Part shown: piece by piece, positions 2,158 to 62,784 of the stretch
Numbering within the stretch: the stretch's first letter is position 1
How the letters are laid out: each line of letters starts with the position of its first letter
Origin: Eledone cirrhosa
Taxonomy: Eukaryota
Assembly (NCBI GenBank): GCA_964016885.1
Contig: OZ024740.1
Span: 19,034,001-19,098,000 of the forward strand
Direction of reading: 5' to 3'
DNA: 64,000 bases
The notes under the pieces: model-generated
The model's input: the letters and a program-made list of their open reading frames with translations, nothing else
What the model was told of the DNA's origin: nothing
The model's database searches: none
Program-made: the position numbers and the translations under genes

Positions 2158-3484
2158 GAAGTGGGCCGAGTGTAAACTATCTTTGAAAGGTCGAGCGGAG
2201 GTGGCGAACACTTTTATAGCGTCCGTCATCTACTACCGCTTGACCGTCGTGCCTTGTCCAGCCAAAACTCTCACCAAAATGGAGCGCGCGATCTTCCAAT
2301 TCCTTTGGAAGAAACGGGCTCCGTTGGTGAGAAGTTCCATCTGCTGCCAACACCCTTCAAACGGAGGGCTGGGGATGCCGTGGCTGACGATGCGCAAACA
2401 CGCGCTCAGACTGCAGCACCTCCACGTATTCCTCACCAGACAACCGGTTTGGGCCCCGTTCGTGAGGCGAGCCTTCCCACGACTCGTCTCGCTGACCGAG
2501 CTGCAGTCCTGGGTCAAGCAAAGACCGAGGAAAATGGGCGACTGGCACATCGACCGTGCTCAGGCGCTCACAGCCCTCTGGCAGGCGGACCCGGCGATTA
2601 GTGGAAAGTCCACTTCGTCATTCTATAGAGGGTTGATCTGCAGCAAGTGCGACAACACGCTCAGAGAAGCTCTAGGCGTAGAGGAAGACGAACTGGCCAG
2701 TTTTTCGATAGGACCTTCCGCCCGGGATCGATGGTCAACTTCCAAAAGTCCCTGGTCTGGCAGTGCTACCAAGGAGCTCTACCAGTTCGAGACAAGCTCT
2801 ACAGACATGGGCGCCCGGGCAGGGACCCTTCGAAAAAGATCTGTCCGAGGTGCATCCGAGACGAAGAAACCGTGGCGCACGCCCGGGCGTTACCGACCTG
2901 TGGGGCTATGTAGAACGACTATTGTCGTGGGTGGGACCAATCCGGTTGACCACCGAGTCCATTGTCATGATCAAACCGCCACCCTCCTTCAAAAACGAAG
3001 GAGAGGCGGTTTTCCTTTGTGTGATAGCTATGGCAAAAGAGGTTGTATGGTGGACAACGTTGAAAGGGCTGAGGTCAGACACCTTTCTCTCCGGCCAACA
3101 GCTGATTCTTTTTTTCAAATACCACTTTGGAAGAAGAATCAGGATGGAGAGAGAAGTGCTGTACCCCAGCAAGTTTTATGAAAGGTGGGTGAAAGTGGCG
3201 AGAATAGCCCGAGTGAATGGGCCTTCTCCCTACATCAGCCTGTAGGATTAGGAAAAAGAGGAAGAGAGGAAAGAGGTACAAACTCTTCGTACTTCTGGAG
3301 ATGAGGGCTGCACATTTTTGGGGGGGTATGTGTTACCCATATGAAATGTCTCCCCCTATTGAGGAAAATCGATTAATTTTTAAATTGCATTTGTGATAGC
3401 ACTTTACACGTTTTTATTGTATGTAAACTTCCCCCTTTGTATTTGTCCCCTTCTTTTGAGCCCCTGTGGCTAATAAAGAAACAT
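2157..3484 (+). mobile_element. Tx1-clade LINE, 5'-truncated and frameshifted (copy b)
   Basis: Starts directly after ATCT at the KWAECKLSLKGR region. ORF2 stop at 3245, AATAAAGAAA end, then ATCT 3485-3540. Confidence 0.9.
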
Positions 3485-3540
3485 ATCTATCTATCTATCT
3501 ATCGATCCAACCATCCATCCTTCTATCTATCTATCTATCT

Positions 3541-16756: not shown

Positions 16757-16863
16757 GTAAGTAATCGCTGCTGAGATATTTAATCATAATTAAGCCAAAG
16801 AAAGGGTGAAAGTAAATACACTGGACATGCTTCGCTATTATTAGACCTCCACAATGAAGTATA

Positions 16864-25680: not shown

Positions 25681-25808
25681 ACAGGGAAAGGGGGAAAGTC
25701 GATTATATCAACCCCAGTATTTTACTGGTACTTTGTTACATCGACCATAACTAAATGCCGAAAAGCATTTTGTCAAACATTCTACTGATCATGATCGTCC
25801 ATAATAAT

Positions 25809-25993
25809 TATTTCTACTTTTGGCACAAGGCCAGCAATTACCCCAGTAAGTTACTGGTACTTTATTTTATCGACCCCGTAAGGATGAAAGGTAAAGTCAA
25901 CCTCGGCGGGATTTGAACTCAGACCGTAAAGAGACGTAACTCTGATAGAAAGCATGGCGTCCAACCCTCTACCTATACTGCCAATTTACCGCC
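25809..25993 (-). mobile_element. tRNA-derived SINE with a 17-bp target-site duplication
   Basis: On the - strand: A-box-like TGGCAGTATAGG, B-box GTTCAAATCC, 3' end TGGCCTTGTGCCAAAAGTAGAAA. tgatcgtcca(t/c)aataat is duplicated at 25792-25808 and 25996-26012. Confidence 0.88.
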
Positions 25994-26012
25994 ATTGATC
26001 GTCCACAATAAT

Positions 26013-26415
26013 GGTTTCTACTATAGGGACAAGTCCAACATTTTCGGGGGAAGGGAAAGTCGATTAAATCAACACCAGTGAATTACTGGTACTTTATTTT
26101 ATCGACCCCGTAGTGATGAAAGGCAAAGCTAACCACAGCGGGATTTGAACTCAGACCATAAATTGCCGTAATTATTTGCCGTAAAGCATATTTTCCGAGG
26201 CTCTACCCATAACAATAAGTTTCTGATTTAGGCACAAGGCCAGCAATTTGGGGGAGGAGATTAGATTGACACCAGTGTGTGAAAGGTACTTTATTTTATC
26301 GATCCCCCAAGGATGAAAGGCAAAGCTAACCTCGGTGAGATTTGAACTCAGAATGCAAGGGGCCGTAACTCTATTCTTCACAGCATGTCGCCCGACGCTC
26401 TACCGATGCTGGCAA
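26013..26415 (-). mobile_element. Two further head-to-tail copies of the SINE
   Basis: The core atcga.ccc...gatgaaaggcaaag...atttgaactcag recurs at about 26100 and 26300. 3' ends lie near 26013 and 26218. Confidence 0.85.
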
Positions 26416-31400: not shown

Positions 31401-33977
31401 GTAAGGACAAGTTCAGCTTCCAGTAACCGGGTCCCTGTCTAGATGTTCCGCTACGATTGGTCCACGTCCATAGTGGTACAGTCGGAAAATCTAGTCGATA
31501 TCTATCGGCCAGGTCAAATCGGCCGATTAACCTTTTGAGGCTTTTACACCCCCCTCTATTGGCACTTGCCCCTACATAGTCCCAACGTGCATCCAGGATA
31601 CCATTCCAGTCCCCCACTAAAAGCAAGGAGCGGGACGTTCCCAGAAAAGTTTCCAGACGTTGGAAGTATTCCGGCCGCGCTGCCCAAAAAGGGGCGTACA
31701 CAGCAATTAGTCTAAGGGCTCCACTTTCACTACTGCCGACGTCTAAAACCACCAGTCGACCCTCCGGGTCCAGGTGTTTTCGCAGCAGAACGACAACTCC
31801 ACCCCCACCCCCCGGTTGACAGAGAGATGCGAAGATCTCAAAGTCGTTGAAGAGGGGCGCCAGTTGGTGCTCGCTGCTGATCCTGGACTCCCAAATAGCC
31901 ATTACATCCATTCTATGCGACCTGAGATCGTTTAAAAGTTTGCCTTGTTTCCAAGACAGTCCCAGGCCGCGTACATTCAGACACCCAACTCTTATATCAG
32001 CCATGTTGGTTAAAAGAGGAAGGACCTACCTGTTCGGCTCCTGAGGAGAAGGTTGTACAATATCCATGGGCGTATTGGAGGGGTTGTTTGGTGGGGTGTT
32101 GTTCTGTGGTGGAGTGGGGGTGTTTGGTGAGGTGTGGGTGGGGAAACGTTTCAAGAGGACGCGGTTATAGGGTCGAGTACATGTTTTCCCCACGTCCTCA
32201 GGAAAGTTCTCTCTTAGTTTTGCATAGGTGTCCATTGGGAGTCTTATCATTTTTAAATGCGGTTTGTTGGCCGCGCTTGCAAAGAATTGCCCTTCAGTTT
32301 CCACCGAAGGGTCTTTGTGTATTGTTTTTACTAGTTCTTTGTTATTTGTGTTAATGTATGTATACTGTTTTATTTGTGTTGTGTTTGTTTGTTGTTCTTG
32401 TGTGTGCTTACGTTTTGTTGTATGTGTTATGTTTTGGGGTGGGGCGTATTTTGTTTGTTCTGTTTGTTTTGTTTTTGTTGGTGGTTGTGTGTTTGTTTCG
32501 TTTATGTTCGAGTGGTGCTTTCTTTTTTTCCTTTTTACAGGTTGGAAGGGTCCCCCCCTCTTCGTCACTAGGTGCCGTTTCAGCTGGGTCCTCGTCCGTG
32601 CTGTCGGGTAGTGGTGTATTTTGGGGTTTTGTTGTGTTTGTGTGTGTTTTTGGAGTTGTTTTGGGTGGGGCCGTGTCTTGTGTTATTTTTCCGTGTTGTT
32701 TTTGTTGTTGTTGTGGTGGTGGTGGTGGTGGTGGAGGTGGTGGAGGTGGTGGCGGTGGTGGTGTGTGGGGTGTAGGCAAAAGAGCCTTTTTTGTCAATTG
32801 AGGACAGGCAGCCCTTAGATGACCCCTGCTTGAACAGTAGTAACATATGGGCCTCCTACCCTCGGCTGAAATGTATATAAATGTTTCTCCATCGAGGGAC
32901 ACCCTCTGTGGTATTCTAGCTATTCGTTCTGGTCTCATTTGGACCAGAACCTCCACGCTCAAACCGCCGAAAACGTCTGTTGTGACTTCTCCTACTGAGA
33001 GGATTCCGTCCTCGTCTTCTAAAAATCCTGTTAGTACCCAGGAAATGCATGCATTTGGCCGGATTCCGGAGACCCTTATTTTCTGCGTTCTTTTCCCTAA
33101 ATATGTGGGGGAAAATGTGTGTAGCTTGGAAACAATTGGCGCCACAGAGTATTTCCTGGCCGTCAATTGATCCTTCATTAGCACCGTTATATTCCCATAG
33201 AGTGGCCCTTTTTGTATGAACGATATATCACTCCAAACATTTTTTAGGACTAGCTCAATTTCTTTTTGGGATAATTGAGCTGGTTTCCTTGTTATGTTGG
33301 AAACTGTTCTGAAAGATATCGTTCTTAGTGTCGTGTCTCTTTTGATTTCTTGTGGGGAGGTGATTGTGAAGTCTCCTCCTTCTTTGAAAGTTACATACTG
33401 TTTTGCTTCCTTCATCTTTTCTCTCAGAGTTGTAATGTCCAGTTGCTTGCAGGTCTGTGTTCTCCGGACCGCCTGTGCAAAGGAGGCACCAGTAGTGGGT
33501 TCGCTTTGTTTGGTGTTATCGTTATTTTTTCCTTGGTTGGTGTTGTGACTATTGCTGTTATTGTCATTGTTGTTTTTGTCTGCGTTTATGTGACTTTCTG
33601 GGTTTTCACCCATTTTTATAAATTTTTCTTTTAATTCCGTGTTCCATGTTTCTTTTGCAGAAGTGAGGAGGGAAGACTTAGAGCCTTGTGCTTCTAGCTT
33701 CTCTGTATCACCTTTCTTAGGGGGCGTGGCTTTCTCGTTAGGATGAGATGTGAAAATTCCGTCCATTTCTATTAGTTTGCCGTAATAAATTTTTAACTGG
33801 AAAATTCGCCCCAAAAAGGGGCGAAAATAAATAAACTCAAAGTTTGACGACCAAGGCAAGGGGTTAACGTATATTACAGTATAAAAAAAATAATCAAAAC
33901 TCACTTTTGAGTAAGTAAATCCGACTCGGTAGCCGAGCTTGTTCACACACGTCAACACACGTCTCTCGTATACGAGA
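28487..33977 (-). mobile_element. Near full-length Tx1-clade LINE inserted in the 72-bp minisatellite (copy f)
   Basis: ORF1 33766-32026 (CYYCSSRGHLRAAC, one frameshift). ORF2 32004-28722 (APE with small deletions, frameshift near 30900, RT with YADD). 3' AATAAAGAAA. Confidence 0.95.
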
Positions 33978-35385
33978 TGTTATGTGAGATATTATGTGAG
34001 GTAAAGCCTTTACTGTGAAAATACAATAGTATATATAGAGTAATGTAAATGTTATGTGAGATATTATGTGTGGTAAAGCCTTTACTGTGACAATACAATA
34101 GTATATATAGAGTAATGTAAATGTTATGTGAGGTATTATGTGAAGTAAAGCCTTTACTGTGAAAATACAATAGTATATATAGAGTAATGTAAATGTTATG
34201 TGAGATATTATGTGAGGTAAAGCCTTTACTGTGTCAATACAATAGTATATATAGAGTAATGTAAATGTTATGTGAGATGTGAGGTAAAGCCGTTACTGTG
34301 ATAATACAATAGTATATATAGAGTAATGTAAATGTTATGTGAGATAGTATGTGAGGTAAAACCTTTACTGTGAAAATACAATAGTATATATAGAGTAATG
34401 TAAATGGTATGTGAGATATTATGTGAGGTAAAGCCTTTACTGTGAAAATACAATAGTATATATAGAGTAATGTAAATGTTATGTGAGATATTATGTGAGG
34501 TAAAACCTTTACTGTGAACATACAATAGTATATATAGAGTAATGTAAATGGTATGTGAGATATTATGTGAGGTAAAACTTTTACTGTGACAATACAATAG
34601 TATATATAGAGTAATGTAAATGTTATGTGAGATATTATGTGAGGTAAAACCTTTACTGTGACAATACAATAGTATATATAGAGTAAATTAAATGTTATGT
34701 GAGATATTATGTGAGGTAAAGCCTTTACTGTGAAAATACAATAGTATATATAGAGTAATGTAAATGGTATGTGAGATATTATGTGAGGTAAAACCTTTAC
34801 TGTGAAAATACAATAGTATATATAGAGTAAATTAAATGTTATGTGAGATATTATGTGAGGTAAAGCCTTTACTGTGAAAATACAATAGTATATATAGAGT
34901 AATGTAAATGGTATGTGAGATATTATGTGAGGTAAAACCTTTACTGTGAAAATACAATAGTATATATAGAGTAAATTAAATGTTATGTGAGATATTATGT
35001 GAGGTAAAGCCTTTACTGTGAAAATATAATAGTATATATAGAGTAATGTAAATGGTATGTGAGATATTATGTGAGGTAAAACCTTTACTGTGACAATACA
35101 ATAGTATATATAGAGTAAATTAAATGTTATGTGAGATATTATGTGAGGTAAAGCCTTTACTGTGAAAATACAATAGTATATATAGAGTAATGTAAATGTT
35201 ATGTGAGGTATTATGTGAGGTAAAACCTTTACCATGAAAATACAATAGTGTATATAGAGTAGTGTAAATGTTATGTGAGGTAAAATCTTTACTGTGAAAA
35301 TACAATAGTAGATATAGAGTAATGTAAATGTTATGTGAGATATTATGTGAGGTAAAGCCTTTACTGTGAAAATACAATAGTAGAT
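33978..35385. repeat. 72-bp minisatellite, about 19-20 units
   Basis: Unit tatgtgagatattatgtgaggtaaagcctttactgtgaaaatacaatagtatatatagagtaatgtaaatgt, seen as a 24-aa period in the ORF track. Confidence 0.95.
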
Positions 35386-35415
35386 ATGCACACACACGCA
35401 CACACACACATACAC

Positions 35416-35451
<36 letters not shown>

Positions 35452-38400
35452 TCTTTCTTTATTAACCACAAGGGTTTACATAAAGTAGACATTAAGAACA
35501 GTACAGGACAATACAGGACGGTACAAAAGGGCGTTTCTGCATGTAAAAAATAAAAACAGAGGATGTAACAAAAAATAACAATGAAAAATTCCCCAATAGG
35601 GGGGAGACTTCCGAGGGGCATTCGTGGAGAAAGCCCATTAAAAAGCCACAGTGACCCTGACCACCAGGACAAGTGCCCTCTCCCAGTTTTCCAACTTTAA
35701 TTTACAGACACATACTCAGAGTAGGCCCATTCACTCGGGCCATTCTTGCCTCTCTCACCAATCTTTCAACAAAATGCTGGGAAGAGAGCACTTCCCTATC
35801 TACCCTGATATTCCTTTTAAAATGAAATTTGAAAAAGTTAATCAGGGCATCACCGAAGAGGTAAGTGCTCGTCTTCAGCCCTTTGAAACGTGTCCACCAT
35901 ACTATCTCTTTCGCCATGGCCACCAGACAGGTAAAAACTGCCTGCCCTTCCCGGCTAAAGGAAGAGGGCGGGGCATTACTCACGATGGACTCAGCTGATA
36001 GCTGGATCCGTCCTACAATGACAACAGGTGTTCGACATAAACCCACAAGTCAGCAATGCTCGGACACTGGACGAGTGCGTGCAAGACGGTTTCGTCGCCC
36101 TGCGCGCATCTCAGACATGCCCGGCTGACGGAACCTCCATGCCTGTAGAGTTTATCCCGAACTGGCAAAGCTCCTCGGTAGCACTGCCAGGCCAGGGATT
36201 TCTGGAAGTTGTCCATAGGTCCCGGCCCGAAGAGATTGGCTAGATTGATTTTCGTCGACGCCTAGAGTTTCCCCAAGTACGTCGTCGCTCTTCCCCTCCA
36301 CTGATCCTCTATAGAACGCCAAGGTGGAGTTTCCACCGATCACATTGCGCGATTGGTCGAGGGCTGTGAGCGCCTGAATACATTCCAGTCGCCAAGCGCT
36401 CCCTCTCGGTCTTCGCTTGACCCAGGACTGCAGCTCCGTCAAGGAGACGAGCTGGGGAAAGACGCGTCTAGCAAACGGCGACCACACCTGATCACCGTCG
36501 AGGAAGAGGTGGAGATGTCGTAGCCTGAGCGCGTGTCTGCGCATCATCAGCCACGGCATGCCCAGTCCTCCACGTAGCGAGTGTTGACAGCAGATGGACC
36601 GCCTGACCAATGGAGCGCGTCCCTTCCACAAAAAGCGAAAGAGCAAACGCTCCAGCGCAGTCAGGCGAGGCTTAGAACAAGGTTCGACGGTCAGGCGGTA
36701 GTAGATGACGGACGCGATGTACGCGTTAGCCACCTCCGCTCGACCTTTCAGGGATAGCTTCTTCTCTGCCCATTTCTGGGTGAGAGAAGCTCGTCACCTC
36801 GTCCCAGTTTTTGTCCGTCTGGAGGTCCGGACCGAACCAGACCCTAGCAATTTAACCGGTCCGTCCGTGCAGCGCCCGACGACGCTGTTGGACGGCATTG
36901 ACCTGCCTCTCCAGGTGCCGAGCTGCAGGCCCACTGACTTTTCCTGGTTGATCATTGCTCCTGTCACCGCTTCGTATTCTCTTAGTGTAGTGCCGATCGC
37001 CTCGATGTGTTTGGCGTTCGACACCACTACGGTAACATCGTCCGCATATGCTGACACGGATCTTCCGCATCCTAGTTCGCGCGGGACCCCCCTCAACGTC
37101 TCCAGTGTGTGCAGTAATGGCTCGAGAGTCAATACGTACAAGAGGGACGAGAGGGGACATTCTTGGCGGACCGAGCGGATGATGTTGAACGGTTCCAAAA
37201 GGTGACCGTTCACTCTCACCACGGAGCAGATATCGCTGTGCATGGCAGGGATCCAGCCTATGAAGACGGGCCCAAAGCCAGCCGCCCTCAGGACTTCCGC
37301 TAGGTAACGATAGTCGACCCTATCGAAAGCTTTCGACTGATCTAAATTGATCAAGGACCCACCTGTGCCAGGTTCCCTAGCTACCCACTCCACGATGTAT
37401 CGCATGAGGTGGAAGTTGTCGTGGATGGATCTGTCGGGAATGGCGCATGTCTGCGCCTCTCCCACCAGACCACCAACGACAAGCGCCAACCTCTTTGCTA
37501 GCACCTTGGCCAAAATCTTGAACTCTGTGTTTAGCAGAGTTATGGGCCTGAAATTATCTATGTTATCCCCTTTGTTCGGATCCTTTCTCAGCAGCGCCAC
37601 CGCTCCTCGGCTCACAGAGCTGGGAATTCTCCCGTTCTGTTGCCAGTTGCAGTAGACGTCTGCCAAGTGGCCTCCGAACAAGTTTGGCATCTGTACTTAA
37701 AGTTCATAGGGCATACCATCCAAATCAGGCGATTTACCCATTGTGCAGCCAGTCATTGCCTCCCGTACTTCAGCGGCTGTTATTGTCTTTTCGCAACACT
37801 CCGCCTCAGTGGCCGAGAGCCGCGGCAGTCCGTCGAGGTAGACACTAAAGCCCATCCCTCGATCCGGCTCGCCGCTGCCCCCGAACAGCTGAGCGAAGTG
37901 TCGCTGAAAAGCTTCACACATTTGCCCGGGATCGAGTAGCATGCGCCCATCGTGTTCCACCAAAGACCGGATCGTGGCTTTGTTGCCACGACGCGCCTCC
38001 GCCACTGGGGCCCATTGAACGGCTTTCGTCCCCTCGTGTCTGAGAGCACGCACCCTAGCACTGACAAGGCAGCCTTCGTGCTTTGCATTGAAGAATTGGT
38101 CATGGGCCAATTTCGCCGCAAGTACGTCGGTCGCGATGCCTTTGCTAAGCGCCTCGTCTAATTTTCTAACTAGTTCTCCCTCTGCTCTATTTTTCTCTAT
38201 AGCTAAAACCTTACTAAACCTAATGGACTCTATTCTAATTGCTCTTTTCAGAGCAAACCAGCACTTGTTGTTGACGATGGCCCTCGTCAACGCCTGCTTA
38301 ACTAGTTCGCTAATCCGGTCTCTGTAGACCTTGCGCGCTGGTAAGGACGCGTTTAGCTTCCAGTAGCCGGGTCCTCGTCTATGAAGCCTATCTAAGTCAA

Positions 38401-41293
38401 GCACACAGATCACAAATTTGTGGCCCGTGTAGCTGACTATCCTGAATTGTGGACAGCCTATGCTAGACCTATCTATTTCCCTACAAAATACTCTATCTAC
38501 ATATGATCTGGATGACCCGATATGGTTTGTCTAAGTCCACATTGGCACATTCGGGAAATCCAATCGGTACCTATCAGACAGTTCAAAACGCCTGAGAAGG
38601 TTGATGAGGCTCTTGCACCCTCCTCCCCTATCCGCTAATCCCACACAGTCCCAGTGTGCATCTAAGATCCTGTTCCAGTCGCCCACTAACACTAAAGAGC
38701 GGGACGTTCCAAGAAAGGTCTCCAGACGCCGGCAGAAATCAGGCCGTCCTGCTCCTGTCGGGGCATAGACGGCCACTAGCCTGAAATCTTGCCCGTCTCC
38801 GCTGGTCACGTTCAGCACCGCCAACTTACCTTCTGGGTCTAGGAAGATGGCCCGCATGGCGAGATCCAAACGTCTCCGAAAAAGCACAGCAACTCCTCCC
38901 CCCCCCCCCGATCCAGGACTGCTGGGAGATGCGTACACATCGAAGCCGCCGAAGATCGGTGCGAAGGCCCGTGCCTCAGAGATTCTGGTCTCGCTGATGG
39001 CCACTACATCTATTTTTAGTGACCTGAGGTCGTTGAGCAGGTGGCCCTGCTTCCATGACGACCCCAAGCCACGCGCATTTATGCTGCCTATTCTGGGTGA
39101 GGTCATGTTGAAATGGAGTGGAAAAGATGGGAAAGACCACTTACCTTACTTCTCGTAGAGGAAGGATGGTTTCTCCATCCTTTTCACTGCTTGTGGCCTC
39201 CTCTGGAAGGATGTCCTTAGAAATCCTCCTGGAGAGTGCTTGTCGGAAGTCTCCGATATCTTTGGGGAATTTTTGTTTTAGTGTCGTGTACGTTTTCTGT
39301 GTGATGCGATTGATTTGTATGTGTGGAGGTGGTGTGAACTTTTGGGGTGTTGTGTAGTCTTTTTCTGTGATGCTGGTGTTGTGTTGGATGTAGTGTAATA
39401 ATTGGTTGTTGTTCAAATTTAATGCTGTGTAGTGTGTATCGTTTTGGTTGTTTTGTTTTGTTTGCGTTTGTTGTGGGTTTGTTTCTGTCTCGCTTTTTGG
39501 TGACTTTTGTGGTGTTGGTGATGGTGGTGTTGGGGTTAATGATGGTGGTGGTGCTGGTGTTTGTGGTGACGGGGTTGGTGATGCTGGTGTGGATGGTGGC
39601 ATAGCTGTCCTAACTTTTTTGTTTGATAGTTTATTGGTTTCCCTCTGTATTTTGTTTTTGGAGGGGGAAGGAAGAGGATTTTTTCTTTTTTCGTGATACC
39701 GTTTCCCACTCCTCGTCGTCACAATCTGTTTCCAGTTGCGATAGGTCGGGGAGTGGAAAATCCTCCACAGGCCTTGGTTTTGGTTGTGGCGTGGTGGATG
39801 GTGTAGGCGCTGGTGCTAGTTCTGGCGCGTTGGGTGGTGTTGGTGTTGGTTTTGCTACTGTTGCTGGGGTTGTTGCTGCTACAGTTGCTTCTGTTGTTGC
39901 TGCTACAGTTGTTGCTTCCATTTCTGCTGCTGATGGTGTTGATGTCACTGGGGTGGGTAAGAGAGGTGGCCTCAACTTTTTAGCCTGCGGGCAGAAAGCC
40001 CTTAGGTGGGTTCCTTCACCACAAGCGACACACCTAGGCATTCTACCCTCGACGATTACGGTGAGGTGGCTGCCGTCAGTGAGGTCTATTACCTCTGGAA
40101 TCTCCTCAATGCTTTTTTGGTTCGCTTGGATCAGGAGCTCCATCCGAGATCCGGACCAGTTCTCCTGCTTTTCTTTTGCTATTTCGATTATCTTGGTGTT
40201 GGCCTCGATGCCGGCGAGGACGGCAGCCATTACCCAGGGAATTTCAATGGCCGGTGGAACATGTGTCACCCTGATCTTCACGAGCCTCTGGCCACAATAG
40301 CTTGGGACGAGTGTGAAGTTGTCGCTTCTTAATGGGGCCATGGAGTGCTCTCTGGCCTCCTGTGGTGTTCCAAAGAACACGTACACGGTTCCATATATCT
40401 GCCCACGTCTGATGTGGGCTTTTTTTGCCCACACATGTCACAAAGCTTTTTGGATTTGGGACTCGGATGCCCGTTCCACTCGGCGCGATTTTATGTTAAT
40501 CGTCCGATAAGACACGGTGCATAGGCGCCGATGCTCCATTTTATTTGGTGGGGAGTGGGGGGGGGGGGGGTTGTCCATGTACCCATCTTTCTTTACCATT
40601 CTCTTGGCTTCATCTAATTCCTCCTGAGTTACCTGGATTGTTTCGCATTTGTTTGCTGCTTTGGCAAACGACACGGTGTTATTCTCATTGTTGTTGTTGC
40701 TGTTGTTGTTATTGTTATTTTTGTTATTGTTATTTTTAGTTTCAGTTGTGGTGGTGGTGGCGTCAGTGGTGTTCAGTGTGGAAGAGTCCATTCTGGGTGA
40801 ATCCATTTCGATGTCACGAGATGATTTATTTTTTCCTTTTGTTTCTGTTGTCGCTGTGGTTGTGATGGTGTGTGTGTGTGGGGGACGGGGGGGCTTTAAC
40901 ATCTGCAGTCATTGGTAATGGCGGGAAATGAATGTCTGCATGAGACGAAATTTAAATTATTGCTACTGCTTATATTTTTAGTGTTGGCAAACGTAGTAAT
41001 ATTTACAATGGTGGTGTTGGTGTGAGGTGTTAGTTTGTGAGGAAGGCTCTCAGTTACTTGGTGTAGCTGTGAGTCGTCCATGATTTTTTCAAAGAAATTT
41101 TTTGTTTGATAATTATAAAAGTTTAAATTTTGGGCTCAAGGCCCCAATCTTTTTGAGTGTCCTTTTCCGAAAGCAAATTGTGTGACTTTATAAACAGTTA
41201 ACAACAAAAATTTTCCATAAATGGCAATTCTAAGCAAACGAAAACAACAAACATTTACGGAGCATATGATGATACGATTTTACGTAGGTCGCC
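35452..41293 (-). mobile_element. Full-length decayed Tx1-clade LINE of a distinct family, flanked by (ATT)n on both sides (copy g)
   Basis: ORF1 41081-39141 (CVACGEGTHLRAFC). ORF2 39106-35702 (APE GDWN, RT YADD). (TAA)n at 35416-35451 and 41294-41343. Confidence 0.93.
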
Positions 41294-41343
<50 letters not shown>

Positions 41344-41344
<1 letters not shown>

Positions 41345-44300
41345 GTCACGTGGAGTGACGAAACCACCGGAGGCGATGAATTCACCGGTGGTTATGCAAC
41401 CATACACTCGCCAATCCTCGATAAGAGTGTTTAAATGTCGAACCTAAACAGTTCGAATAACGGTGAAATGGAGACTAGAATGTCATGTGACAGACTCTCA
41501 CACAACAAGTGCTCCCCGGCTCAGCAGCAGCGACCTGGCTGTCAACCAAATACTGCTGGTGTCCGAGGAAGAAGAAGAAGGAAAGGGTCCAGAACCAACT
41601 GGACGAAAGAATTGAATAGAACTGTTATGCAATGTTACCTGAAGAGTAACCCCAAGGAGAAAGGCTATAGGAAACGGATGCATAACATCTGGAACGAGAT
41701 TGGTCTATTTAAATTAGATGAATAAAAATTGGCCGGGCAGGCTCGGGTAATAAGAACTAATGGGTGGATAAGCGAGCTGGAACTGGAGGAACTGAGCAGA
41801 GAGATTAGCTTGGAGATGGAGAGTGGAGTATGCCAGGCAAACGAGCCAGTGGGAAATGAAGGTGAAGAGGTCGAGAGAACGGAGGAACCATCCGAAGCAG
41901 ACAATGATCTGAATGCTGAGATAAATAATACCTGGAACAGAGATACGGCCACTGAGGAGATGAATGCTGACGGGCTAGGACAAGATTTGGTTGATATCCT
42001 AAACTTAGTGGTAGATGAATTGAACAATGATAGTGGGAGACCTATGAACCTAAGATTTGTAGACAGGAAAAAGTTAAAAGAAACAACAGCTAAGGTAAAC
42101 AAAGTCATCCCATACCTTGAGGCGAGGAGCCTTCACCAGTGCAACAATATCCTCAAAGCAACAGCAAATACGGTGAGGAAACTACTTGGTATAAAAGCGA
42201 GAGGAAACAACAGGCAAGAAAGAGCAGAGCCTTGGTGGAAGAAACGACTGAGTGGTCAAATCAGGGAAATGAGAAATGACATTGGAAAGCTTGAGTCCCT
42301 ACTGAATGGGACACTAAAAAACATAGACACTAAAAATAGACTGGAAATAAAGTACAAAACTAGGAGGAAAAAGCTAAATATTATCATAGAGGAACTGAAG
42401 CAACGCATTGTAGCAAAGAGTGCAAAAATCAGGCGATACGAGAACAGAGTCAGTCAGTATAGACAGAACCGCATGTTCGACAACAACCAGAAGATGCTGT
42501 TTGGACAGCTTGAAGGGAAAGAAAGAGGCAACGACTTGATCCCTGAGGCGGAACAAACTAAAACATTCTGGAGAGGAATATGGGAGCAGGATGTTAAACA
42601 TAATGACCAGGCAGTGTGGATTGAGACAGTACAGAAGGAGATCAGTGAGCAGGCACACCAACAAACTGATTTGAGTATCGCAGTTGAAACTCTTAAGGGG
42701 CAGGCCAAAAAACTAACCAACTGGAAATCACCAGGCCCAGATGGTGTGCAGGTGTATTGGATTAAAAATATAACATCCCTCCACCCGAAACTGACAACCA
42801 TGTTCAATGACTGCTTGATGTCAGGTGAGGTACCAGAGTGGTTGACAAAAGGTACCACAGTTCTGATAATGAAAGACCGAATCAAGGGTAATGATGTTAC
42901 CAACTATAGACCTATCACATGTCTGTCCGTAATGTGGAAACTGTTGACAAGCATTATGTCTGAGGAAATCTACCATCACCTCCACGCAAACAACTTGTTA
43001 CCGGACGAACAGAAAGGATGCCGAAAGAAGTCACATGGTACAAAGGACCAGTTACTTATTGATAAGATGGTAATGAGGAATTGCAAGAAGAGACACACTG
43101 GTCTTGCCATGGGATGGATAGACTACAAAAAGGCATTTGACATGGTGCCTCATTCTTGGATCACCAAAAGCCTGGAGATCTTCAAGGTGGCAGATAACAT
43201 CAGACAGTTGTTGGGCAAAAGTATGAAGTCCTGGGAAACAGAGTTAACATGAACTGGAGAATCCTTGGGAAGATTGAAGATCAAGAAAGGTATCTTCCAG
43301 GGAGATAGTCTGTCCCCTCTGTTGTTTGTCCTTACCCTGATGCCCCTGACCAGTGTACTGCGAAAAGTGAGAGCAGGATACGGGTTGGGAAAGGGAGGGC
43401 TTACCATCAATCACCTCCTCTTCATGGACGATCTTAAGCTCTTCGGGAAGAGTGAGAAGGAGTTGGATGTGCTTGTTGACACTGTCCGTATTTTCAGCAA
43501 TGATATATGTATGCAATTTGGTATTAGTAAGTGTGGAGTCATTGTGATGAAGAGGGGTAAGTTGAGCAGAAGTAACGGAATCCAGATACCAACAGGTGAG
43601 ATGATAAAGGAAAATGACTCTGAAGAAGGATACAAGTATTTGGGCGTTCTGGAGGTTGATGACATCAAGAACAAAAAAAATGAAGGAATTTATAAGATCT
43701 GAATACATTCGGAGAGTAAGGAGCGTATTAAAGTCACATCTGAACAGTAAGAATGCCATAAGTGCAGTAAATTCCCGAGCTGTGTCTATTATTAGGTACA
43801 GTGCGGGAATTCTGAGATGGAATGTTGCTGAACAAAAAGAAATGGATAGGAAGACTAGGAAGCTATTGACTATCTACAACATGTTCCACAAGAGGAGTGA
43901 TGTCGATAGACTCTACTTAAGGAGATCTGAAGGTGGAAAAGGTCTTATCAGCATAGAGGACTGTGTTCAGATGGAGAAAAACAACCTACACAAATACGTG
44001 ACTGATAGTAAGGCGCCAATGCTCAGAACTGTACTGAGGAGGGGACAATAGGCCAGGGGATGTCCAAGGAGGAAATAACATCAAGGAGAAAGAGCAGCCT
44101 TCAGGAAAAATCCCTTCATAGTACCTTCTTTGAGAAAACTGAATTTAGAGATCCACAGACATTGAACTGGTTGAAAAGAGGAGACCTTAAAAAGGCTACA
44201 GAAGGAATGTTAATGGCTGCGCAGGAGCAGGCCCTCAAAACGAAGTGGTTGAAACACCATATTTACAAGGAGGAGGCTAGCCCACTGTACAGGATCTGTG

Positions 44301-44926
44301 GAGAGAGAGAGGAGACTGTGGCTCACATTGTATCCGAGTGTAAACACCTGGCCCAGACACACTATAAGGGCTGGAGACATGATGTGATGGGCAGGGTGAT
44401 CCACTGGCACCTATGCAAAGTAAACAATTTACCACATTCTGAGAAGTGGTATGATCATAAGCCAGAGTCGGTGATAGACAACGATCAGGTGAAGGTGCTG
44501 TGGGATTTTAGGATACAGACGGACAAGAAACTGGAACACAATAGACCTGGTGCTTTTGGACAAGGAAAAAAGATCGTGCCTGATTGTGGATGTAGCCTGC
44601 CCATTCAACACGAGAGTGCAAGAAAAGGAGAGGGAGAAAATTAACCGATACCAGGACTTAAAGTGGGAGGTAAAAAGGAACTGCCATGAAGTCAAAGTGG
44701 TCCCGATTATCATAGGCGCACTAGGTACTATCTCAAAACGTTTCCAGGGATGGTTAAAGAAAATTGGCCCCGCCCTGCTTTTTGGAACACTTCAAAAGGC
44801 ATGCTTGTTGGGAACAGCAAGAACCCTCCGATACGTCCTGAATAGCTGAGGCTGCAGGTAGTGGCTTGATATTCATTTCGACAAACTTTCCAGTTAACTA
44901 ACATCAATGACTGAGACTCAAAGAAC
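41344..44926 (+). mobile_element. R4/Dong-like non-LTR retrotransposon (RT plus restriction-like endonuclease), full length but disrupted
   Basis: Single broken ORF 41435-44849 with NWKSPGPDG, YRPITCL, FQGDSLSP, FMDDLKL, a Cys/His knuckle and KEREKINRYQDL. (TAA)n on both sides, the known Dong target. Confidence 0.9.
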
Positions 44927-45727
44927 AATAATAATAATAATAATAATAATAATATTAACATATTTAAATCATTTGTGAAATAACAACTCTTAGTACAAAT
45001 GCTACGTAAAGCATCCGGCTTGAGCCCCAAAAAATTCGGACCCAAAATATATTGTTATAAGGCTCAAATATTCAAATATTCAACTTTGTATTGTACATTG
45101 TATATTCAAAAAAGATAATGGCTATAAATGGAAGAAGAACCCCCCCCCCTCTGTCTACGCTATATAGAACAGCCAAACAACACTAGAAACTAGATACAAC
45201 ACCTACCCCATCACCTCTCTGTGTACACTAAACACAACAGCCAGATAACGGCAATTTCACCACCACCACTCACTGCTGCCATCATTACCACCACTATCCC
45301 ATCACCGCCGCCACCACTCCTTCATTGATACCACCGCTACAACACCATCACTACAGTAATACGACCACATCGCCACCACCACAGCCTCGGTATCGACATC
45401 ACCACCACCACTGTCTCAGTATCGATACCGCCGCTACTGTCTCCCACATCTCCCCGCCGCCACCACTCCTTCAATGCTATCACCATTATTCCCCTGTTAA
45501 CTTGAGAGAGAAAGGGGAAGGTGGCGGTATCACTAGACAATGGAGAGGCTAGCAAAAGATATAAATAGATTGACTTAGTGACCTGGCCAAGGCCAAACGT
45601 CAATATCAACAACTATGGGACTGCTGGCTCACCCCTTCCTCACCAACAATATAAAAAGCCCCGGCACCACCACCGACATAGCCAACAACAATAACAGCCA
45701 ACTACAACACAAAGTATATTATATTAT

Positions 45728-45775
45728 TGTAATGCACTGGGTGATTGCTGGCCTTGTGCCTGGAGTGGAGACACT
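45728..45775 (+). mobile_element. SINE 3' fragment
   Basis: gtaatgcactgggtgattgctggccttgtgcc, preceded by attatt. Confidence 0.6.
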
Positions 45776-45864
45776 ATTAATAATTTCATTCTTAAGCCAC
45801 GCAATGCTCACATTAAGGAACCACTCATGATAATAACAATTTAAAAAAAAACAACAAAAAGAAA

Positions 45865-48800
45865 ACCCCGTGACCAAGAAATACCGGGATGGCGGCCGGC
45901 GGGGAATAGCCGTGTCTCTAGGGGAGAACGACCCCTCTAGTCTTGGTTGACACTCGTTCTAGAAGTGGCAACACGAAATGATTACCCCTTGGCGGATAAG
46001 GATAAAACGCGACAAAATAAAGTAAATGTCTAATGATAAAATCTCATACCGGATCGGCCGTCACCCGGGTAAAAAAGGGCCGCGTCCCTCAGAGAGGAAC
46101 CAGACTGGGGTCGAAAAATCAACTAATGGTTCAAACCTTCCCATCACTTCGGAGCTGGAGACCTCCCATAACCGGAATACTCCTACTGTTGGCCCTCCAT
46201 GCTCACCACCAAGAAATCCAAAGAAAAAGAGAGAAAAATGGTCAAGGGAAGATAATAAAGAAGTCCTTGAGGCTTTCTACACTGCCATGTACTACCCATC
46301 AAATACATCGAATACAGAACAGACATATATCAACTGGAAAAAGAAACATCCCGAAAACAGAGGCTATATTGACAGTAACAAACTAGCCAATATACGAAGA
46401 AATATTGTAAGAAAAAAGTTACTAACTGATATAGAAATTGATCAGATCAAGCTATTAGCACAAAGTCAGTGAAGGGAAAATGAAACATGTGTCAGTGAAA
46501 ACGAGGTAAACTGTAACACTTCGAATCCCAGGGTTGGGGCGGAATCACTGGCAACAGAACAAATTAAAGAAAGGATCGAAAAAGTGGAGGGAGTGCATGC
46601 TCAGGATGAAACGCCAAATGAAAATAATGAGATCGTAAATGATAAAGAAATGAATGAGAATGAACTTGCTAACTTGAAGGATGAAATTATGATCGAATGG
46701 ATGAAAATGAAAGAATATGACATGGGGCAACGAGACACCCTCCCTAAGATCCAGAACTCCAAACAGAACCAAAAGATAATACACAAGACTAACATAATTC
46801 TCAAAAACATTATCATCACAAACAAACTAAACATTACTGATTTAAATCATCTCTATTATGCATCGGCTAAAGTCACCACTCACTTATGTGGAGTGAAGAT
46901 GAAAAAACAAAGGAATTCCCACAAGAAATCTACTTGGCAAGAGAACATCAATCGCCAAATAAACCTTCTCCGATCTGACATAGAAATTTTAAAAAACTAT
47001 AAAGTAGGTGAACATGTTAAACAAACTAAACTTAGAAAATTAAAAAAAAGTACAGTATAAAATCAACATGTGACATAGACATGCTGATAGAAATAATCAA
47101 GCAAAAAGTGTCGGCCAAAGCTGCTCGTATAAGGCGCATTGAAAAACGATCTAGATTCTATAAGGACAATAATATGTTCAAAAACAACCAAAGAAACTTC
47201 TACAGAAAAATTGGTAAGTCAACAATAACTGCTAAATCAATACCACCCAAGGAGGAAGTGCAAGAATTCTGGGAAAAGATCTGGGCCGAAGAAAAAGTTC
47301 ATAACATACAGGCCCCATGGATAGACAGACAAATGAAAGATACAGCTCACCTTGAGGAACAAACATGGGAAAATATAACAGTTGAACAGTTGCGCTTGGC
47401 TCTAAGAAAAACCAGCAAATGGAAATCCCCAGGAAAAGACAAAATACAAAACAGAGTCTCATGAGCTGTTAGCCCAACTTTACAATGAAATAGTTAAGGA
47501 GCCAGAAAAATACCTTCATGGCTAGTTAACGGCATTATATTCCTGCTTCCGAAGAATGATGAGACAAACAATCCCAAAAATTACAGACCGATAACTTGCT
47601 TGACCACAATGTATAAAATTTTAACATCAGTCCTAACTGAATACACATATGACCACCTGATAACAAATGACCTATTTCCCATTGAGCAGAAAGGGTGTAA
47701 ATGAGGCTCATATGGCTGTAAGGATCAGCTTCTGGTTAACAAAATGATACTGGAAGATTGTCATAATAGACACAAAAATCTATCGATTGCTTGGATAGAT
47801 TATAAAAAAGCATTTGATAGTTTGCCACACAGTTGGATTGAAAAATGTTTAGAGATTTTCAAAGTATCCCCCGTTGTCAGGAGGTTTTTGTCATTCAGTA
47901 TGAAGACATGGAAAACGACACTCCTTTTGAATAGTGAAACAAAATCACTGGAAGCTGGAGAAGTTAATAATAATTGTGGAATTTTTCAGGGTGACTCTTT
48001 ATCACCGCTTTTATTCTGCATCGCACTTATACCATTAAGTAAAATGCTCAATGAAACAAAACATGGATATAAAGTCTATGACAAAACCATTAATCACCTG
48101 TTCTACATGGATGACCTGAAACTATTTGCAAAAAATGATGAACAATTGCAAGGGCTATTATCCACTGTGAAGCAGTTCAGTGATGACATTAAAATGGAGT
48201 TTGGACTAGATAAATGCGCCAAAGCAACGTTCACCAGAGGAAAGCTGCTGAAGAGTTCAGACATTAATCTTGATCGGGGGAACGTGATAAGAGAACTTGA
48301 TCAAGAAAAAACTTACAAATATCTAGGTGTTTGTGAAGGAGACGGAATCAAGCACTCGACAATGAGGGAAAGGATAAGGAAGGAATGTTACCGCAGAGTG
48401 AGAGCAATCTTAAGAACGGAATTGAATGCAAGGAATAGGATCGATGCCATAAACACGCTTGCCATACCAGTAGTAACCTACAGTTACAATGTCATCAACT
48501 GGTCAAGCACAGAGATCCGTAGGCTCGATACAAAAATTCGAAAATTCTTAACCATGCACAGAATGCATCACCCTAAGGCAGATATAGATAGAATATATCT
48601 CCCTAGGAAAGAAGGAGGACGTGGGTTAATCCAGTTAGACATTGCGTTGAAAACTGCAACAATTGGATTATCTACATATCTAAGGGAATCACATGATTGG
48701 ATGATCAAACTCGTTTTGAAACACGAAAGCATCAAAAGATCATATTCCATTACAAAAGATGCACAAAGATACAGTAATGGACTACAAATTTCAGAAGTCC

Positions 48801-49794
48801 CATTTACTGCTGAAATGGAAAACACAGAAAAAGCAAAGCAGGTAAAAGTAACTGCAAAGAAAGAACTGCTACAGAAACTGGCTAAGAAATGGCAAGAAAA
48901 GCCTCCGTATGGAAAATACCCAGAGCGAGCTAACAATCCTGATGTTGACAAAACTTTAACCCATCAGTGGTTGGCATCCTCTGAACTGAAATCGGAGACT
49001 GAAGGACTGATTATATCGGCACAAGATCAGTGTCTGCCAACAAAAAATTACCAAGCCAACATAATAAAAAATGGGTGCAGCCCATTATGCCGTGTATGCA
49101 AAAAACAACCAGAGACCATTGACCATATAATTTCAATGTGCAGTCCTCTAGCTCCAACCGAATACCTAAACAGGCATGACAGAGCTGCACAATACATACA
49201 TTGGATAATGTGTAAGCATTTTGACCTGCCCCATCAAAAGAATTGGTGGGAGCTTCAACCACCTCCCATACTTGAAAAAGATCACATCTCAATCTTGTGG
49301 AACTTTAGCATCCAAACAGACCGAAAAATAGATGCAAACAGACCTGATATAATATTGAAAGACTTTCAAAAGAGGGTATGCCTGCTAATTGATATGTCTG
49401 TTCCAATAGACAAGAATGTATAAAAACATTTGAAAAATTGAGCAAGTATAAGGACCTGGAGATAGAAATTGGAAAAATGTGGAAATTGAGAACTAAAACA
49501 ATACCAGTGGTTGTAGGCGCTCTGGGAATGATACCTAAGGGGTCTAATGATTACATATCGCAAATCCCAGGAAACCCGCGTATAGGAGAAATACAAAAGA
49601 TAGTACTAATGGGAACTGCCCATATACTAAGGAAGATTCTGTCAATATAAGTACATCACAAGTCTAAACACTAAAGATGCATGTGTGAATATGTATGTTC
49701 TTTCTTGAACATGGCGGACCTTGTTGTCTCTTGAGGTCACTGGTTGTGACTTGGTGATAACTCGTATGAACATAAAGCAAGATAAATGCAACTG
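45865..49794 (+). mobile_element. Second R4/Dong-like family, full length but disrupted
   Basis: Broken ORF 46026-49650 with FQGDSLSP, YMDDLKL, CRVC...ETIDHIISMC and NRPDIIL. Followed by (TAA)n. Confidence 0.9.
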
Positions 49795-49818
49795 TAATAA
49801 TAATAATAATAATAATAA

Positions 49819-49866
49819 TTGTTTCTACTTTAGGCACAAGGCCAGCAATTACCCAGTACATTACAC
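49819..49866 (-). mobile_element. SINE 3' fragment inside (TAA)n
   Basis: Reverse complement reads tgctggccttgtgcctaaagtagaaacaattattatt. Confidence 0.75.
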
Positions 49867-49869
49867 CCT

Positions 49870-49949
<80 letters not shown>

Positions 49950-49950
<1 letters not shown>

Positions 49951-50716
49951 TGAGAAGAGGAGACCTCAAAAAGGCTACAGAAGGAATGATAATGGCTGCG
50001 CAGGAGCAGGCCCTCAAAACGAAGTGGTTGAAGCACCATATTTACAAGGAGGAGGCTAGCCCACTGTGCAGGATCTGTGGAGAGAGAGAGGAGACTGTGG
50101 CTCACATTGTGTCCGAGTGTAAACACCTAGCCCAGACCCACTATAAGGGCTGGAGACACGATGTGATGGGCAGGGTGATCCACTGGCACCTGTGCAAAGT
50201 AAACAATTTACCACATTCTGAGAAATGGTATGAGCATAGGCCGGAGGCGGTGATGGAGAACAATCAGGTGAAGGTGCTGTGGGATTTTAGGATACAGACA
50301 GACAAAAAACTGGAACACAATAGACCTGACCTGGTGGTTGTGGACAAAGAAAAAAGATCGTGTCTGATTGTGGATGTGGCCTGCCCGTTCGACACGAGAG
50401 TGCAAGAGAAGGAGAGGGAGAAAATTAACCGATACCAGGACCTAAAGTGGGAGATGAAAAGGATTTGGAACTGCCATGAAGTCAAAGTGATCCCGATTGT
50501 CATAGGCGCACTGGGGACTATCTCCAAAAGTTTCCAGGGATGGTTAAAGAAAATCGGCCCCTTCACGCTTTTTGGAACGCTTCAAAAGGCATGCTTGCTT
50601 GGAACAGCAAGAACCCTCCCATACGTCCTGAATATCTGAGGCTGCAGGTAGTGGCTTGATATTCATTCCAACGGACTTTCCAGTTAACCAACATCAATGA
50701 CTGAGATTCAAGGAAT
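49950..50716 (+). mobile_element. 5'-truncated copy of the first R4/Dong family
   Basis: Highly similar to 44170-44926, with CRIC...H...C and RPD motifs intact. (TAA)n on both sides. Confidence 0.9.
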
Positions 50717-50722
50717 AACAAC

Positions 50723-50756
<34 letters not shown>

Positions 50757-51689: not shown

Positions 51690-52825
51690 TGGTTGGCTAG
51701 TTGGCTGGTTGGTTGGCTGGCTGGTTGGCTGGTTGGATGGCTGGTTGGATGGTTGCTTGTGTGGTTGGCTGGTTGGTTGCTTGGTTGGGTGCTTGGTTCG
51801 TTGATTGGTTGGTTGGCTGGTTGGTTGGATGGTTGGTTGGATGTTTGGCTGGTTGGTTTGGTTGGTTGGCTGGTTGGCTGGTTGGTTTGTTGGTTGGTTG
51901 GTTGGCTGGCTGGTTGGTTGGCTGGTTGGTTGGTTGGTTGGTTGGCTGGTTGGATGGCTGGTTGGTTGGTTGGCGGTTGGATGGTTGGTTGGTTGGTTGG
52001 TTGGTTGGCTGGGTGGATGGTTGGATGGTTGGTTTGTTGGCGGTTGGTTAGTTGGCTGGTTGGTTGGTTGGTTGGCTGGTTGGTTGGTTGGTTGGTTGGC
52101 TGGTTGGTTGGTTGGCTGGTTGGTTGGCTGGTTGGTTGGATGGTTGGATGGTTGGTTGGTTGGTTGGTTGGTTGGTTGGCTGGTTGGTTGGATGGTTGGT
52201 TGGATGGTTGATTGGTTGGCTGGTTGGTTGGATGGTTGGCTGGTTGGTGGTTTGTTAGTTGGCTGGTTGGTTGGCTGGTTGGTTGGATGGTTGGTTGGTT
52301 GGCGGTTGGTTAGTTGGCTGGTTGGCCGGTTGCTTGGATGGTTGGCGGTTGGATAGTTAGCTGATTGGCTGGTTGGCTGGTTGGTTGGCTGGGTTGTTGG
52401 CTGGTTGGTTGGCTGGTTGGTTGGTTGGTTGGCTGGTTGGTTGGTTGGTTGGCTGGTTGGTTGGCTGGTTGGCTGGCTGGTTGGTTGGTTGGCTGGGTGG
52501 TTAGCTGGATGGTTGGATGGTTGGTTGGTTGGTTGGCTGGTTGGTTGGCTGGTTGGATGGCTGGTTGGTTGGTTGGCTGGTTGGCTGGTTGGTTGGCTGG
52601 GATGTTGGCTGGTTGGTTGGCTGGTTGGTTGGTTGGTTGGCTGGTAGGTTGGTTGGTTGGCTGGTTGGCTGGTTGGTTGGCTGGTTGGTTGGCTGGTTGG
52701 CTGGCTGGTTGGTTGGATGGTTAGCTATTTGGTTAATTAGTTTGTTGGTTGGCGGGTTGGTTGGTTTGTTGGTTGTTTGGTTGGTTGTTTGGTTGGTTTG
52801 TTGGCTTGTTGGTTGGTTGCTTGGT
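51690..52825. repeat. About 1.1 kb (GGTT)n/(GGCT)n microsatellite
   Basis: Directly visible. Confidence 0.97.
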
Positions 52826-54105: not shown

Positions 54106-54309
54106 AATAAGGGTATATCCAGGAAGGTTTATTAATACTCATTTTATAACATCAAAGAAGAAAAAAAACATCCCGGGTATGCTAACCAGCCTGACTGCTA
54201 TTTCTAGCAGGTTGGGAATTAACCATAAGGGATTCTCTCCGCGCATTCGTAGTCAGTGACGATCGTGTTTCGCGGCCAGCGTCTCCGATTCGAACGCTGG
54301 TTTATAGAC

Positions 54310-54615: not shown

Positions 54616-54802
54616 GGCGATGGATTGGCAGTATCGGTAGAGTGTTAGACACCATGCTTTGGAGCATAGAGTTATGATGTCTTTATGTTCTGAGTTCAAA
54701 TCCCGCTGAGGTTAACTTTGCCTTTCATCCTTATGGTGTCGATAAAATAAAGTACCAGTAATGCACTGGGTAATTGCTGGCCTTGTACCAAAAGTAGAAA
54801 CA
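54616..54802 (+). mobile_element. Complete tRNA-derived SINE with a perfect 15-bp target-site duplication
   Basis: A-box-like TGGCAGTATCGG and B-box GTTCAAATCC. attataaagtcaaca occurs at 54601-54615 and 54803-54817. Confidence 0.92.
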
Positions 54803-54829
54803 ATTATAAAGTCAACATTAAAAGGCATT

Positions 54830-55045: not shown

Positions 55046-55049
55046 CAAT

Positions 55050-62096: not shown

Positions 62097-62336
62097 AGAC
62101 TTACAACAATCTGCAACATCGAAACTCTGTATGGGAACGTCAAATATTCCACGCTTTGTTTTTCGATATAAGAAGCGATATCATCAAACAAAAGCGTTTT
62201 CCTGGTGTTCGTTATAATGCTGGTATTGGTATCGTAAATAGTAATGAATGTCTTACCGGACTCTAAGTACGACAAGGCTCCTCCTCATAGTCTTGTGCTT
62301 CTGTTTAACCAGCACTCTGCCTCCCAACCACATAAT

Positions 62337-62522
62337 TGTTTCTACTTTTGGCACAAGGCCAGCAATTACGCAGTACATTACTGGTACTTTATTTTATCGA
62401 CCCCGTAAGGATGAAAGGCAAAGTTAACCTCGGCTGGATTTGAACTCAGAATGGCAAGGGCCGTAACTCTATGCGTCAAAGCATGGCCTCCAACCCTCTA
62501 CCGATACTGCCAATTCACCGCC
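62337..62522 (-). mobile_element. Complete tRNA-derived SINE
   Basis: Reverse complement has TGGCAGTATCGG, GTTCAAATCC and ends TGGCCTTGTGCCAAAAGTAGAAACAATTAT. Confidence 0.9.
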
Positions 62523-62784
62523 CTAGTCTTACCTAATAATAATTTTCTAGTGGGATCTGCCCCTTGGGCTGTATTCGGGGTAAACATTATCCTCCCCTAT
62601 GTCAGATTTTGTAGGGTGTATTTTAACCACAATGGTACCTGGCTGAACGTCATACCCTCGCGGACCCTCGGGATCTGCGAGCAACACAAATACCCTTACT
62701 GTTCCATGATAGACTGTTTCGGAGGTTTTCATTCCCTGTCATGTACCCTCAACACTTTGAAAAACTTAGTTCCCCTGCTATAAT

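Follow-up and report, generated by a model that had tools for sequence, protein, structure and literature searches.

Candidate mobilisation of a tRNA-like SINE by ATT-targeting Tx1-like LINEs in Eledone cirrhosa

In UnaSINE/UnaL2 and the stringent L2, CR1 and RTE pairs, a 3′ stem-loop followed by a short repeat recruits the LINE protein (PMC3747384). L1-clade tails are carried by just three SINEs among the 58 pairs tabulated in PMC3747384, all of them from plants or algae, and that table contains neither a Tx1 pair nor a cephalopod pair. In maize and sorghum, ZmSINE2/3 and SINE2_SBi share a common 3′ hairpin with LINE1-1_ZM, with compensatory changes in the stem (PMC3472496), and SINEX-3_CR/L1-1_CR is also listed as an L1-group pair (PMC3747384). 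In crocodilians, movement of SINEU by the Tx1 element Tx1-Mar was inferred from a common target preference and age, and SINE target preference was found capable of being looser than that of the LINE (PMC4494074). Kibi and Koshi are Tx1 elements that target the microsatellites (TC)n and (TTC)n (PMC4494074). Among molluscs, SINEs make up 11.6% of the O. vulgaris genome (PMC13282606), and the available portions of PMC4758252, PMC5786205, PMC3531059, PMC4824008, PMC11481361, PMC7245038, PMC8967140 and PMC13282606 do not identify a Tx1 element as the partner of any mollusc SINE.

The initial annotation of the locus described here knew of no description of such a pairing; to call a Tx1–SINE pairing undescribed is too strong, since crocodilian SINEU/Tx1 (PMC4494074) and plant L1-clade hairpin tails (PMC3472496) are published. 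Tx1-driven SINEs and L1-clade hairpin tails are known separately; their combination, a Tx1–SINE pair with a shared 3′ hairpin, is apparently new, no report of it having been found in the literature searched, which lay outside Repbase and Dfam. From sequence comparisons in Eledone cirrhosa, we propose that a SINE is probably copied in trans by ATT-targeting Tx1-like LINEs.

A SINE and Tx1-like LINEs in one window

The window, a 64,000-nt stretch of contig OZ024740.1, contains a full-length, decayed Tx1-like LINE of family g (35452..41293, minus strand), with ORF1 remnants that include a CCHC knuckle and with endonuclease and RT remnants of ORF2. An (ATT)n run follows its 3′ end (35416..35451, minus strand) and an (ATT)n array precedes its 5′ start (41294..41343, minus strand). 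Pfam domains PF03372 and PF00078 (endonuclease and RT) were matched in this copy. In a related copy in the window, PF13966 was matched at a score below the cut-off, and comparison of that copy with human L1 ORF2p gave E 3e-42 against 3e-20 for R2. The CCHC knuckle was present in 4/4 ORF1 frames inspected. Because of these endonuclease and RT domains, the knuckle and the far better match to L1 ORF2p than to R2, the lineage of copy g belongs to the L1 group. A CCHC knuckle in ORF1 is a Tx1 trait; together with targeting of microsatellites and a lack of poly(A), it leads us to infer the Tx1 label, by traits rather than by a tree including reference Tx1 elements. The best named homologues of the protein come from Argonauta and Sepia, and no named Tx1 occurred among the 120 homologues listed or in six cluster look-ups. 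One homologue with 62% identity (P0013/P0135), labelled Herbaspirillum sp. and lying on a 1.8-kb contig, is likely eukaryotic contamination.

ATT-type Tx1 elements comprise families g, h, i, j and l, and a second class is of (TATC/TACC)n type; ORF2 ends compared between g, h, i and the TATC type are mostly 68–88% identical. At least 10 copies of the (TATC/TACC)n type, several nested or truncated, cluster densely at 1–34000 and 55000–62000 of the window, adjoining long arrays of TACC and of CCAA. A tandem satellite with a unit of about 57–69 nt (33894–35390) abuts two Tx1 copies, and its unit recurs in other loci. A likely host exon with a charged coiled-coil stretch lies at 16439–16774 on the plus strand and had no Pfam match.

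The SINE is 193 nt long, non-coding and dispersed, with the size (<700 nt) and copy number of a tRNA-derived SINE; 600 kb held 41 3′-complete copies of a short type and 17 of a long type. In the window, the short type is represented by a full-length copy in which no target duplication was found (62332..62524, minus strand), a copy with a 17-nt duplication (25804..25993, minus strand) and a copy at 54616..54807 (plus strand) with a perfect 15-nt duplication (54601–54615/54803–54817) and a broken inner stem pair. A 5′-truncated copy with a broken outer stem pair lies within an (ATT)n array (49815..49864, minus strand), and two copies of the older long type stand in tandem (26008..26211 and 26213..26415, minus strand). 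The target duplications, 5′ truncation and fixed 3′ end are marks of retrotransposition. Box-like motifs were seen in the SINE head by eye against a consensus; the head had no Rfam match, and ARAGORN called no gene in the window. We infer that the SINE has a tRNA-like head and is transcribed by Pol III. Just upstream of its hairpin is an indel-rich spot, which stops ungapped extension and so masks any accumulation of SINE truncations at the hairpin.

Insertion sites, ages and candidate partners

The strongest evidence for a partnership is the insertion signature. Target duplications of at least 10 nt, compared with permuted flanks, were found for 14/33 SINEs in a random sample plus the window (permuted 8%), for 33/47 SINEs at best-hit loci (permuted 6%) and for 11/39 ATT-type Tx1 copies (permuted 4%). 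The duplication began exactly at the tail in 10/14 and 29/33 of these SINE cases, respectively, and in 10/11 of the Tx1 cases. Over all loci, anchored duplications numbered 76/204 for the short SINE, 15/67 for the long SINE and 18/57 for Tx1; the remaining 39/57 Tx1 copies lacked one, and low-complexity sequence makes up about 8 of the 18 Tx1 duplications. These Tx1 loci were picked by a pattern that requires ATTAT (122 matches, 64 places inspected), and Tx1 5′ ends within tandem arrays are uncertain. Median duplication length was 16.5 nt for the SINE and 17.5 nt for ATT-type Tx1 (p=0.49), with a range of about 10–23 nt.

In the left copy of the SINE duplication, which is the genomic one, ATTAT is present, with 71–76 of 76 sites agreeing at each position. 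ATTAT is therefore the true target, since it begins the genomic copy. The base at −1 is a pyrimidine at 60/76 SINE sites and 17/18 Tx1 sites (background 61%). Both SINE and ATT-type Tx1 are inserted at targets that start with ATTAT, and in the same polarity. In addition, 22/90 Tx1 copies have a SINE on the same strand no more than 100 nt from their 3′ end, compared with 2/55 CR1 and RTE copies (p=0.0009). Tails are much longer in Tx1 than in the SINE (runs of at least 12 nt in 73/90 and 2/30, respectively), a difference that speaks against the partnership.

The ages of the SINE and Tx1 overlap. Median divergence from the column majority in the best-hit sets, which are skewed young, was 2.1% for family g, 1.1% for h, 3.7% for i, 2.2% for the SINE and 0% for a CR1-like LINE, and in the random SINE sample it was 4.9% (short) and 13.1% (long). 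At locus L095, a Tx1 of family h inserted after a SINE, because the Tx1 duplication copies SINE letters, and at L140 an old SINE was seen by eye inside a Tx1 3′ UTR. Four loci at which a SINE appeared to be later than Tx1 were rejected as artefacts of a reference library that contained SINE and ATT sequence. A scripted nesting scan returned no true SINE-in-Tx1 or Tx1-in-SINE, and one case of a CR1-like element in a SINE (L263).

Target preference, duplication length and age, which the initial annotation had asked to be compared, overlap between the SINE and ATT-type Tx1. The two have in common an insertion signature and overlapping activity as well as 3′ sequence, which are among the features expected of a stringent SINE/LINE pair. 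Of the proposal that a Tx1/L1-clade LINE mobilises the SINE through a structure-based signal, the first part is well supported by the target site, the length and polarity of the insertions' duplications and tails, co-location and age, and the partner is very probably a Tx1-group LINE.

A young CR1-like LINE with a 957-aa ORF2 likewise has a terminal hairpin followed by (ATT)n, the same tail repeat and polarity as in the SINE; it has a high copy number, and CR1 is a frequent SINE partner (PMC3747384). We nevertheless consider it highly improbable that it moves the SINE. Among 23 copies, none had a duplication starting at the tail and four had one anywhere, three of these ending 12–13 nt from the 5′ end; its hairpin is different, with a 6-nt loop, and matches the SINE end at 9/25 letters. 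It is also younger, with 29/29 best copies within 1% of the column majority against 2/29 SINEs, and the copy at L263 interrupts a SINE. In neither 3′ end nor insertion signature does the SINE look CR1-partnered, and this CR1-like family is already largely refuted as partner. The family itself (L240–L244, L250 and L251–L280) has many 957-aa frames, identical 3′ ends, a duplicated 3′ UTR and an (ATT)n tail, and is possibly still active; a 67-nt query from its 3′ end found no match, whereas a longer query found copies.

We also judge it improbable, if less so, that the partner is an RTE or R4/Dong-like LINE, or an L2, Penelope, Hero, R2, CRE or lost LINE, with the ATT niche reached by convergence. 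An RTE-driven SINE elsewhere has duplications of about 17 nt (PMC7245038), R4/Dong-like copies occupy the same arrays as the SINE, and LINE 3′ ends were traced at 20 loci from an endonuclease search, with L2 proper, Penelope, Hero, R2 and CRE outside the survey. One R4-like family also holds a piece of SINE tail: a SINE-tail variant is fixed in its 5′ region (45729..45777, plus strand; also at L134, L127 and L076), and its copies are 94–97% identical. Against this, RTE here ends in (GAT)n, and its duplications (6/22) all fall in (AT)n and compare with 15% in permuted flanks (maximum 26%). R4/Dong-like elements end in (AAT)n, of opposite polarity, and 0/25 have a same-strand SINE neighbour; because of their (AAT)n tails, these elements point the other way within the shared arrays. 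No match at the tail position was found among the surveyed non-Tx1 ends. The tail repeat, polarity and 3′ end of the SINE are thus not those of an RTE- or R4-partnered SINE.

Other LINEs were seen in passing. R4/Dong-like elements with (AAT)n ends lie at 41726–50745 of the window, and elsewhere they stand tail-to-tail with SINEs and Tx1 (L188, L189, L200 and L208). A decayed RT fragment whose 3′ end was not found (52733–54151, minus strand) looks like a CRE-type element. A LINE at L231 and L232, with a PHD-like ORF1 and an RNase H-like C-terminus, we take to be I/Ingi-like.

The shared 3′ hairpin

The 3′ end of Tx1 copy g has a hairpin with a 4-bp stem and a 5-nt loop (35464..35476, minus strand), followed by AATAAA and then GAAA (35454..35463, minus strand). 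The letters annotated initially for this end were confirmed at 35447–35476 (minus strand), although the two preceding the tail are a minority variant in family g. The feared absence of the hairpin from the family is ruled out, with the stem whole in 30/30 and the loop in 29/30 best-hit copies. AATAAA is invariant across 19 aligned Tx1 ends and lacking in the SINE; it is likely a polyadenylation signal required by the LINE alone.

The claim that SINE and LINE have the same loop, stem length and spacing held for the loop and the spacing to GAAA; the 4-bp stem is whole in just 2/6 SINE ends of the window. The outer pair is U-U in 8/22 SINE ends and unpaired in 9/19 Tx1 ends, and the common core is therefore a 3-bp stem. 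Both elements thus have a CTTGT loop on a 3-bp stem, an equally spaced GAAA and then ATTAT, with a middle stem pair that is C-G in 19 Tx1 rows and G-C in six SINE rows. The loop-to-AGAAA pattern occurs seven times in the window, at six SINE ends (25811, 26015, 26220, 49822, 54782 and 62339) and at the Tx1 end (35454), against 0.19 expected, a count inflated by the homology of the SINE copies. Fairer tests are a tail-anchored 25-letter match and a 29-letter match against a hairpin in the Tx1 5′ UTR.

In the tail-anchored match, 12/12 Tx1 ends scored 14–18, compared with 9 for the CR1-like end; among 2305 ATTAT sites in 400 kb, two non-SINE sites reached 15 and none reached 17. The initial annotation compared copy g with the SINE, but family i is closer to the SINE (17–18 letters of 25, against 15 for g and 14 for h). 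Nor is the signature tied to family g, since a CTTGT-loop hairpin with GAAA ends every Tx1-like family examined, and the same block is found in ATT-type families h, i, j and l and in (TATC/TACC)n-type families. A Tx1-end model gave 11 strong matches in the window, 10 of them at (TATC/TACC)n-type copies, for example at 3449..3493 (plus strand), with further copies at 2057, 5604, 8303, 14366, 21442, 22380, 59254 and 61918 (plus strand) and at 28475 (minus strand). The pairing is therefore at the level of the ATT-type Tx1 lineage, with family i fitting best.

A model built from SINEs only, run against 18 LINE-bearing loci, had Tx1 3′ ends as its top three non-SINE matches (20.9, 17.5 and 17.0 bits) and matched no CR1, RTE or R4-like 3′ end. 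The converse model, built from Tx1 only, barely recovered the SINE, with three older-type SINE ends in 400 kb (E 0.019, 0.48 and 1.1) and 1/6 SINE ends in the window (E 4.2), young SINE ends being mostly missed. The shared 3′ sequence is above background, yet shorter and weaker than in classic SINE/LINE pairs.

The covariation score was 0.208 for Tx1 alone, reached by 13/500 shuffles, and 0.362 with SINEs added, reached by 0/500 shuffles and higher than all slid controls; these shuffle counts are not readable as probabilities, because compensatory events are few (about 2–4) and the rows are related. Pairs changing on both sides numbered 2/4 among 19 Tx1 ends and 3/4 after six SINE ends were added. 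No excess of folding energy over shuffles was found in five Tx1 and SINE ends (z −0.17 to +1.48), and the hairpin was absent from the centroid fold of the SINE at 62330–62420. The structural part of the original proposal thus has moderate support, given the few independent compensatory changes, the lack of folding excess and the weak model scores, and we lean towards the view that the hairpin is read as structure.

Short insertions were also seen. Mini Tx1 insertions of 24–33 nt, consisting of hairpin and tail and ending at the hairpin base, occurred at 7/34 pattern loci, the lower size limit being set by the pattern. Examples are at L282, L298, L307, L138 and L152, some with 17–19-nt target duplications. 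These mini-copies fit a reverse transcriptase that halts at a folded hairpin.

A second hairpin with the SINE-type stem lies in the 5′ UTR of the same Tx1 copy (41115..41149, minus strand), some 35 nt upstream of where ORF1 likely starts. Compared with the SINE end, it agrees at 22/29 letters and has identical stem letters; in 1.2 million positions, no more than one unexplained site does as well. This hairpin was present in 13/15 aligned ATT-type Tx1 5′ UTRs (and at L023, L021, L127, L189, L203 and others) and missing from 4/4 TATC-type copies checked. The SINE tail may have come from this hairpin, or the hairpin may be a SINE end that Tx1 captured, as an R4-like family also carries one, or an additional binding site. 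That the whole 5′ UTR might be an old SINE was rejected, as sequence upstream of the hairpin does not resemble the SINE body. Since the 5′ UTR hairpin already has the SINE-type stem, the swapped stem letters could have an origin other than compensatory change in the 3′ copy.

This resemblance bears on an alternative in which Tx1 moves the SINE with relaxed recognition, only pairing of the ATTAT tail counts, and the hairpin likeness is inherited, for instance from the 5′ UTR hairpin. The 22/29 match with its identical stem speaks for it, as do the nil folding excess and the poor scores of the Tx1-only model on SINE ends. It is hard to reconcile with the conservation of the hairpin block, which is 82% identical among nine Tx1 ends where upstream windows of the 3′ UTR are 35–53% identical, with the loop, stem and spacing kept by both SINE types, or with the mini-copies, whose sequence breaks off at the base of the hairpin and of which some have 18–19-nt duplications. 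We therefore think relaxed recognition unlikely and retain recognition of the hairpin as the working model.

Proposed mechanism and comparison with known pairs

In this model, ORF2p of an ATT-type Tx1 would bind the SINE hairpin and GAAA and nick the strand opposite pyrimidine|ATTAT. The terminal ATT-type bases of the RNA would pair with the nicked target strand and prime reverse transcription, and a second nick about 15–19 nt away would give rise to the target duplication. As far as the hairpin goes, any Tx1 of the lineage would do, and selection of the ATT type would fall to the tail; because tail bases would pair with the target, the SINE would use ATT-type and not TATC-type Tx1, though both have the hairpin. 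More speculatively, and with considerable doubt on our part, animal Tx1 might have stringent structure-based 3′ recognition across the lineage, with twin hairpins at both RNA ends in the ATT type and a SINE tail derived from the 5′ one, and this microsatellite-targeting machinery might have yielded a SINE about once per 10 kb in a cephalopod genome.

If true, a Tx1 pair with a common hairpin would show stringent recognition by the L1 group in an animal, with implications for the timing of its relaxation in mammalian L1. Such a pair would further point to a likely driver of part of the octopod SINE expansion, account for the crowding of SINEs with Tx1 and R4-like elements into (ATT)n arrays, and provide a directly testable 25-nt signal. 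Among cephalopod SINEs, OR1 and OR2 of octopus were reportedly described by Ohshima and Okada in 1994, and OK is said to be another. Like the SINE described here, these are of tRNA type with a conserved body and have cephalopod hosts, a likeness by description and not by sequence. The CORE member is named OR2 in PMC4758252 and OR1 in PMC4824008.

UnaSINE/UnaL2-type pairs work on the same principle in other clades. Kibi and Koshi resemble the present LINEs in targeting microsatellites, here (ATT)n and (TATC/TACC)n, the comparison being by targets and not by tree. SINEU has snRNA-derived heads, poly(A) and a Mariner target, in contrast to the tRNA-like head and ATTAT target found here, and no LINE sharing the 3′ half of SINEU-1 is reported in PMC4494074, whereas here the 3′ hairpin motif is common to both elements. 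The plant and algal L1 pairs are like the present one in a hairpin whose loop and 3′ flank are conserved and whose stem shows compensatory changes, few as these are here (PMC3472496; PMC3747384). They differ in that the LINE is L1 and not Tx1, about 50–80 nt are shared, and the hairpin is stronger, with −10.8 to −17.7 kcal/mol (PMC3472496; PMC3747384), compared with about 25 shared nt and a 3–4-bp stem in Eledone cirrhosa.
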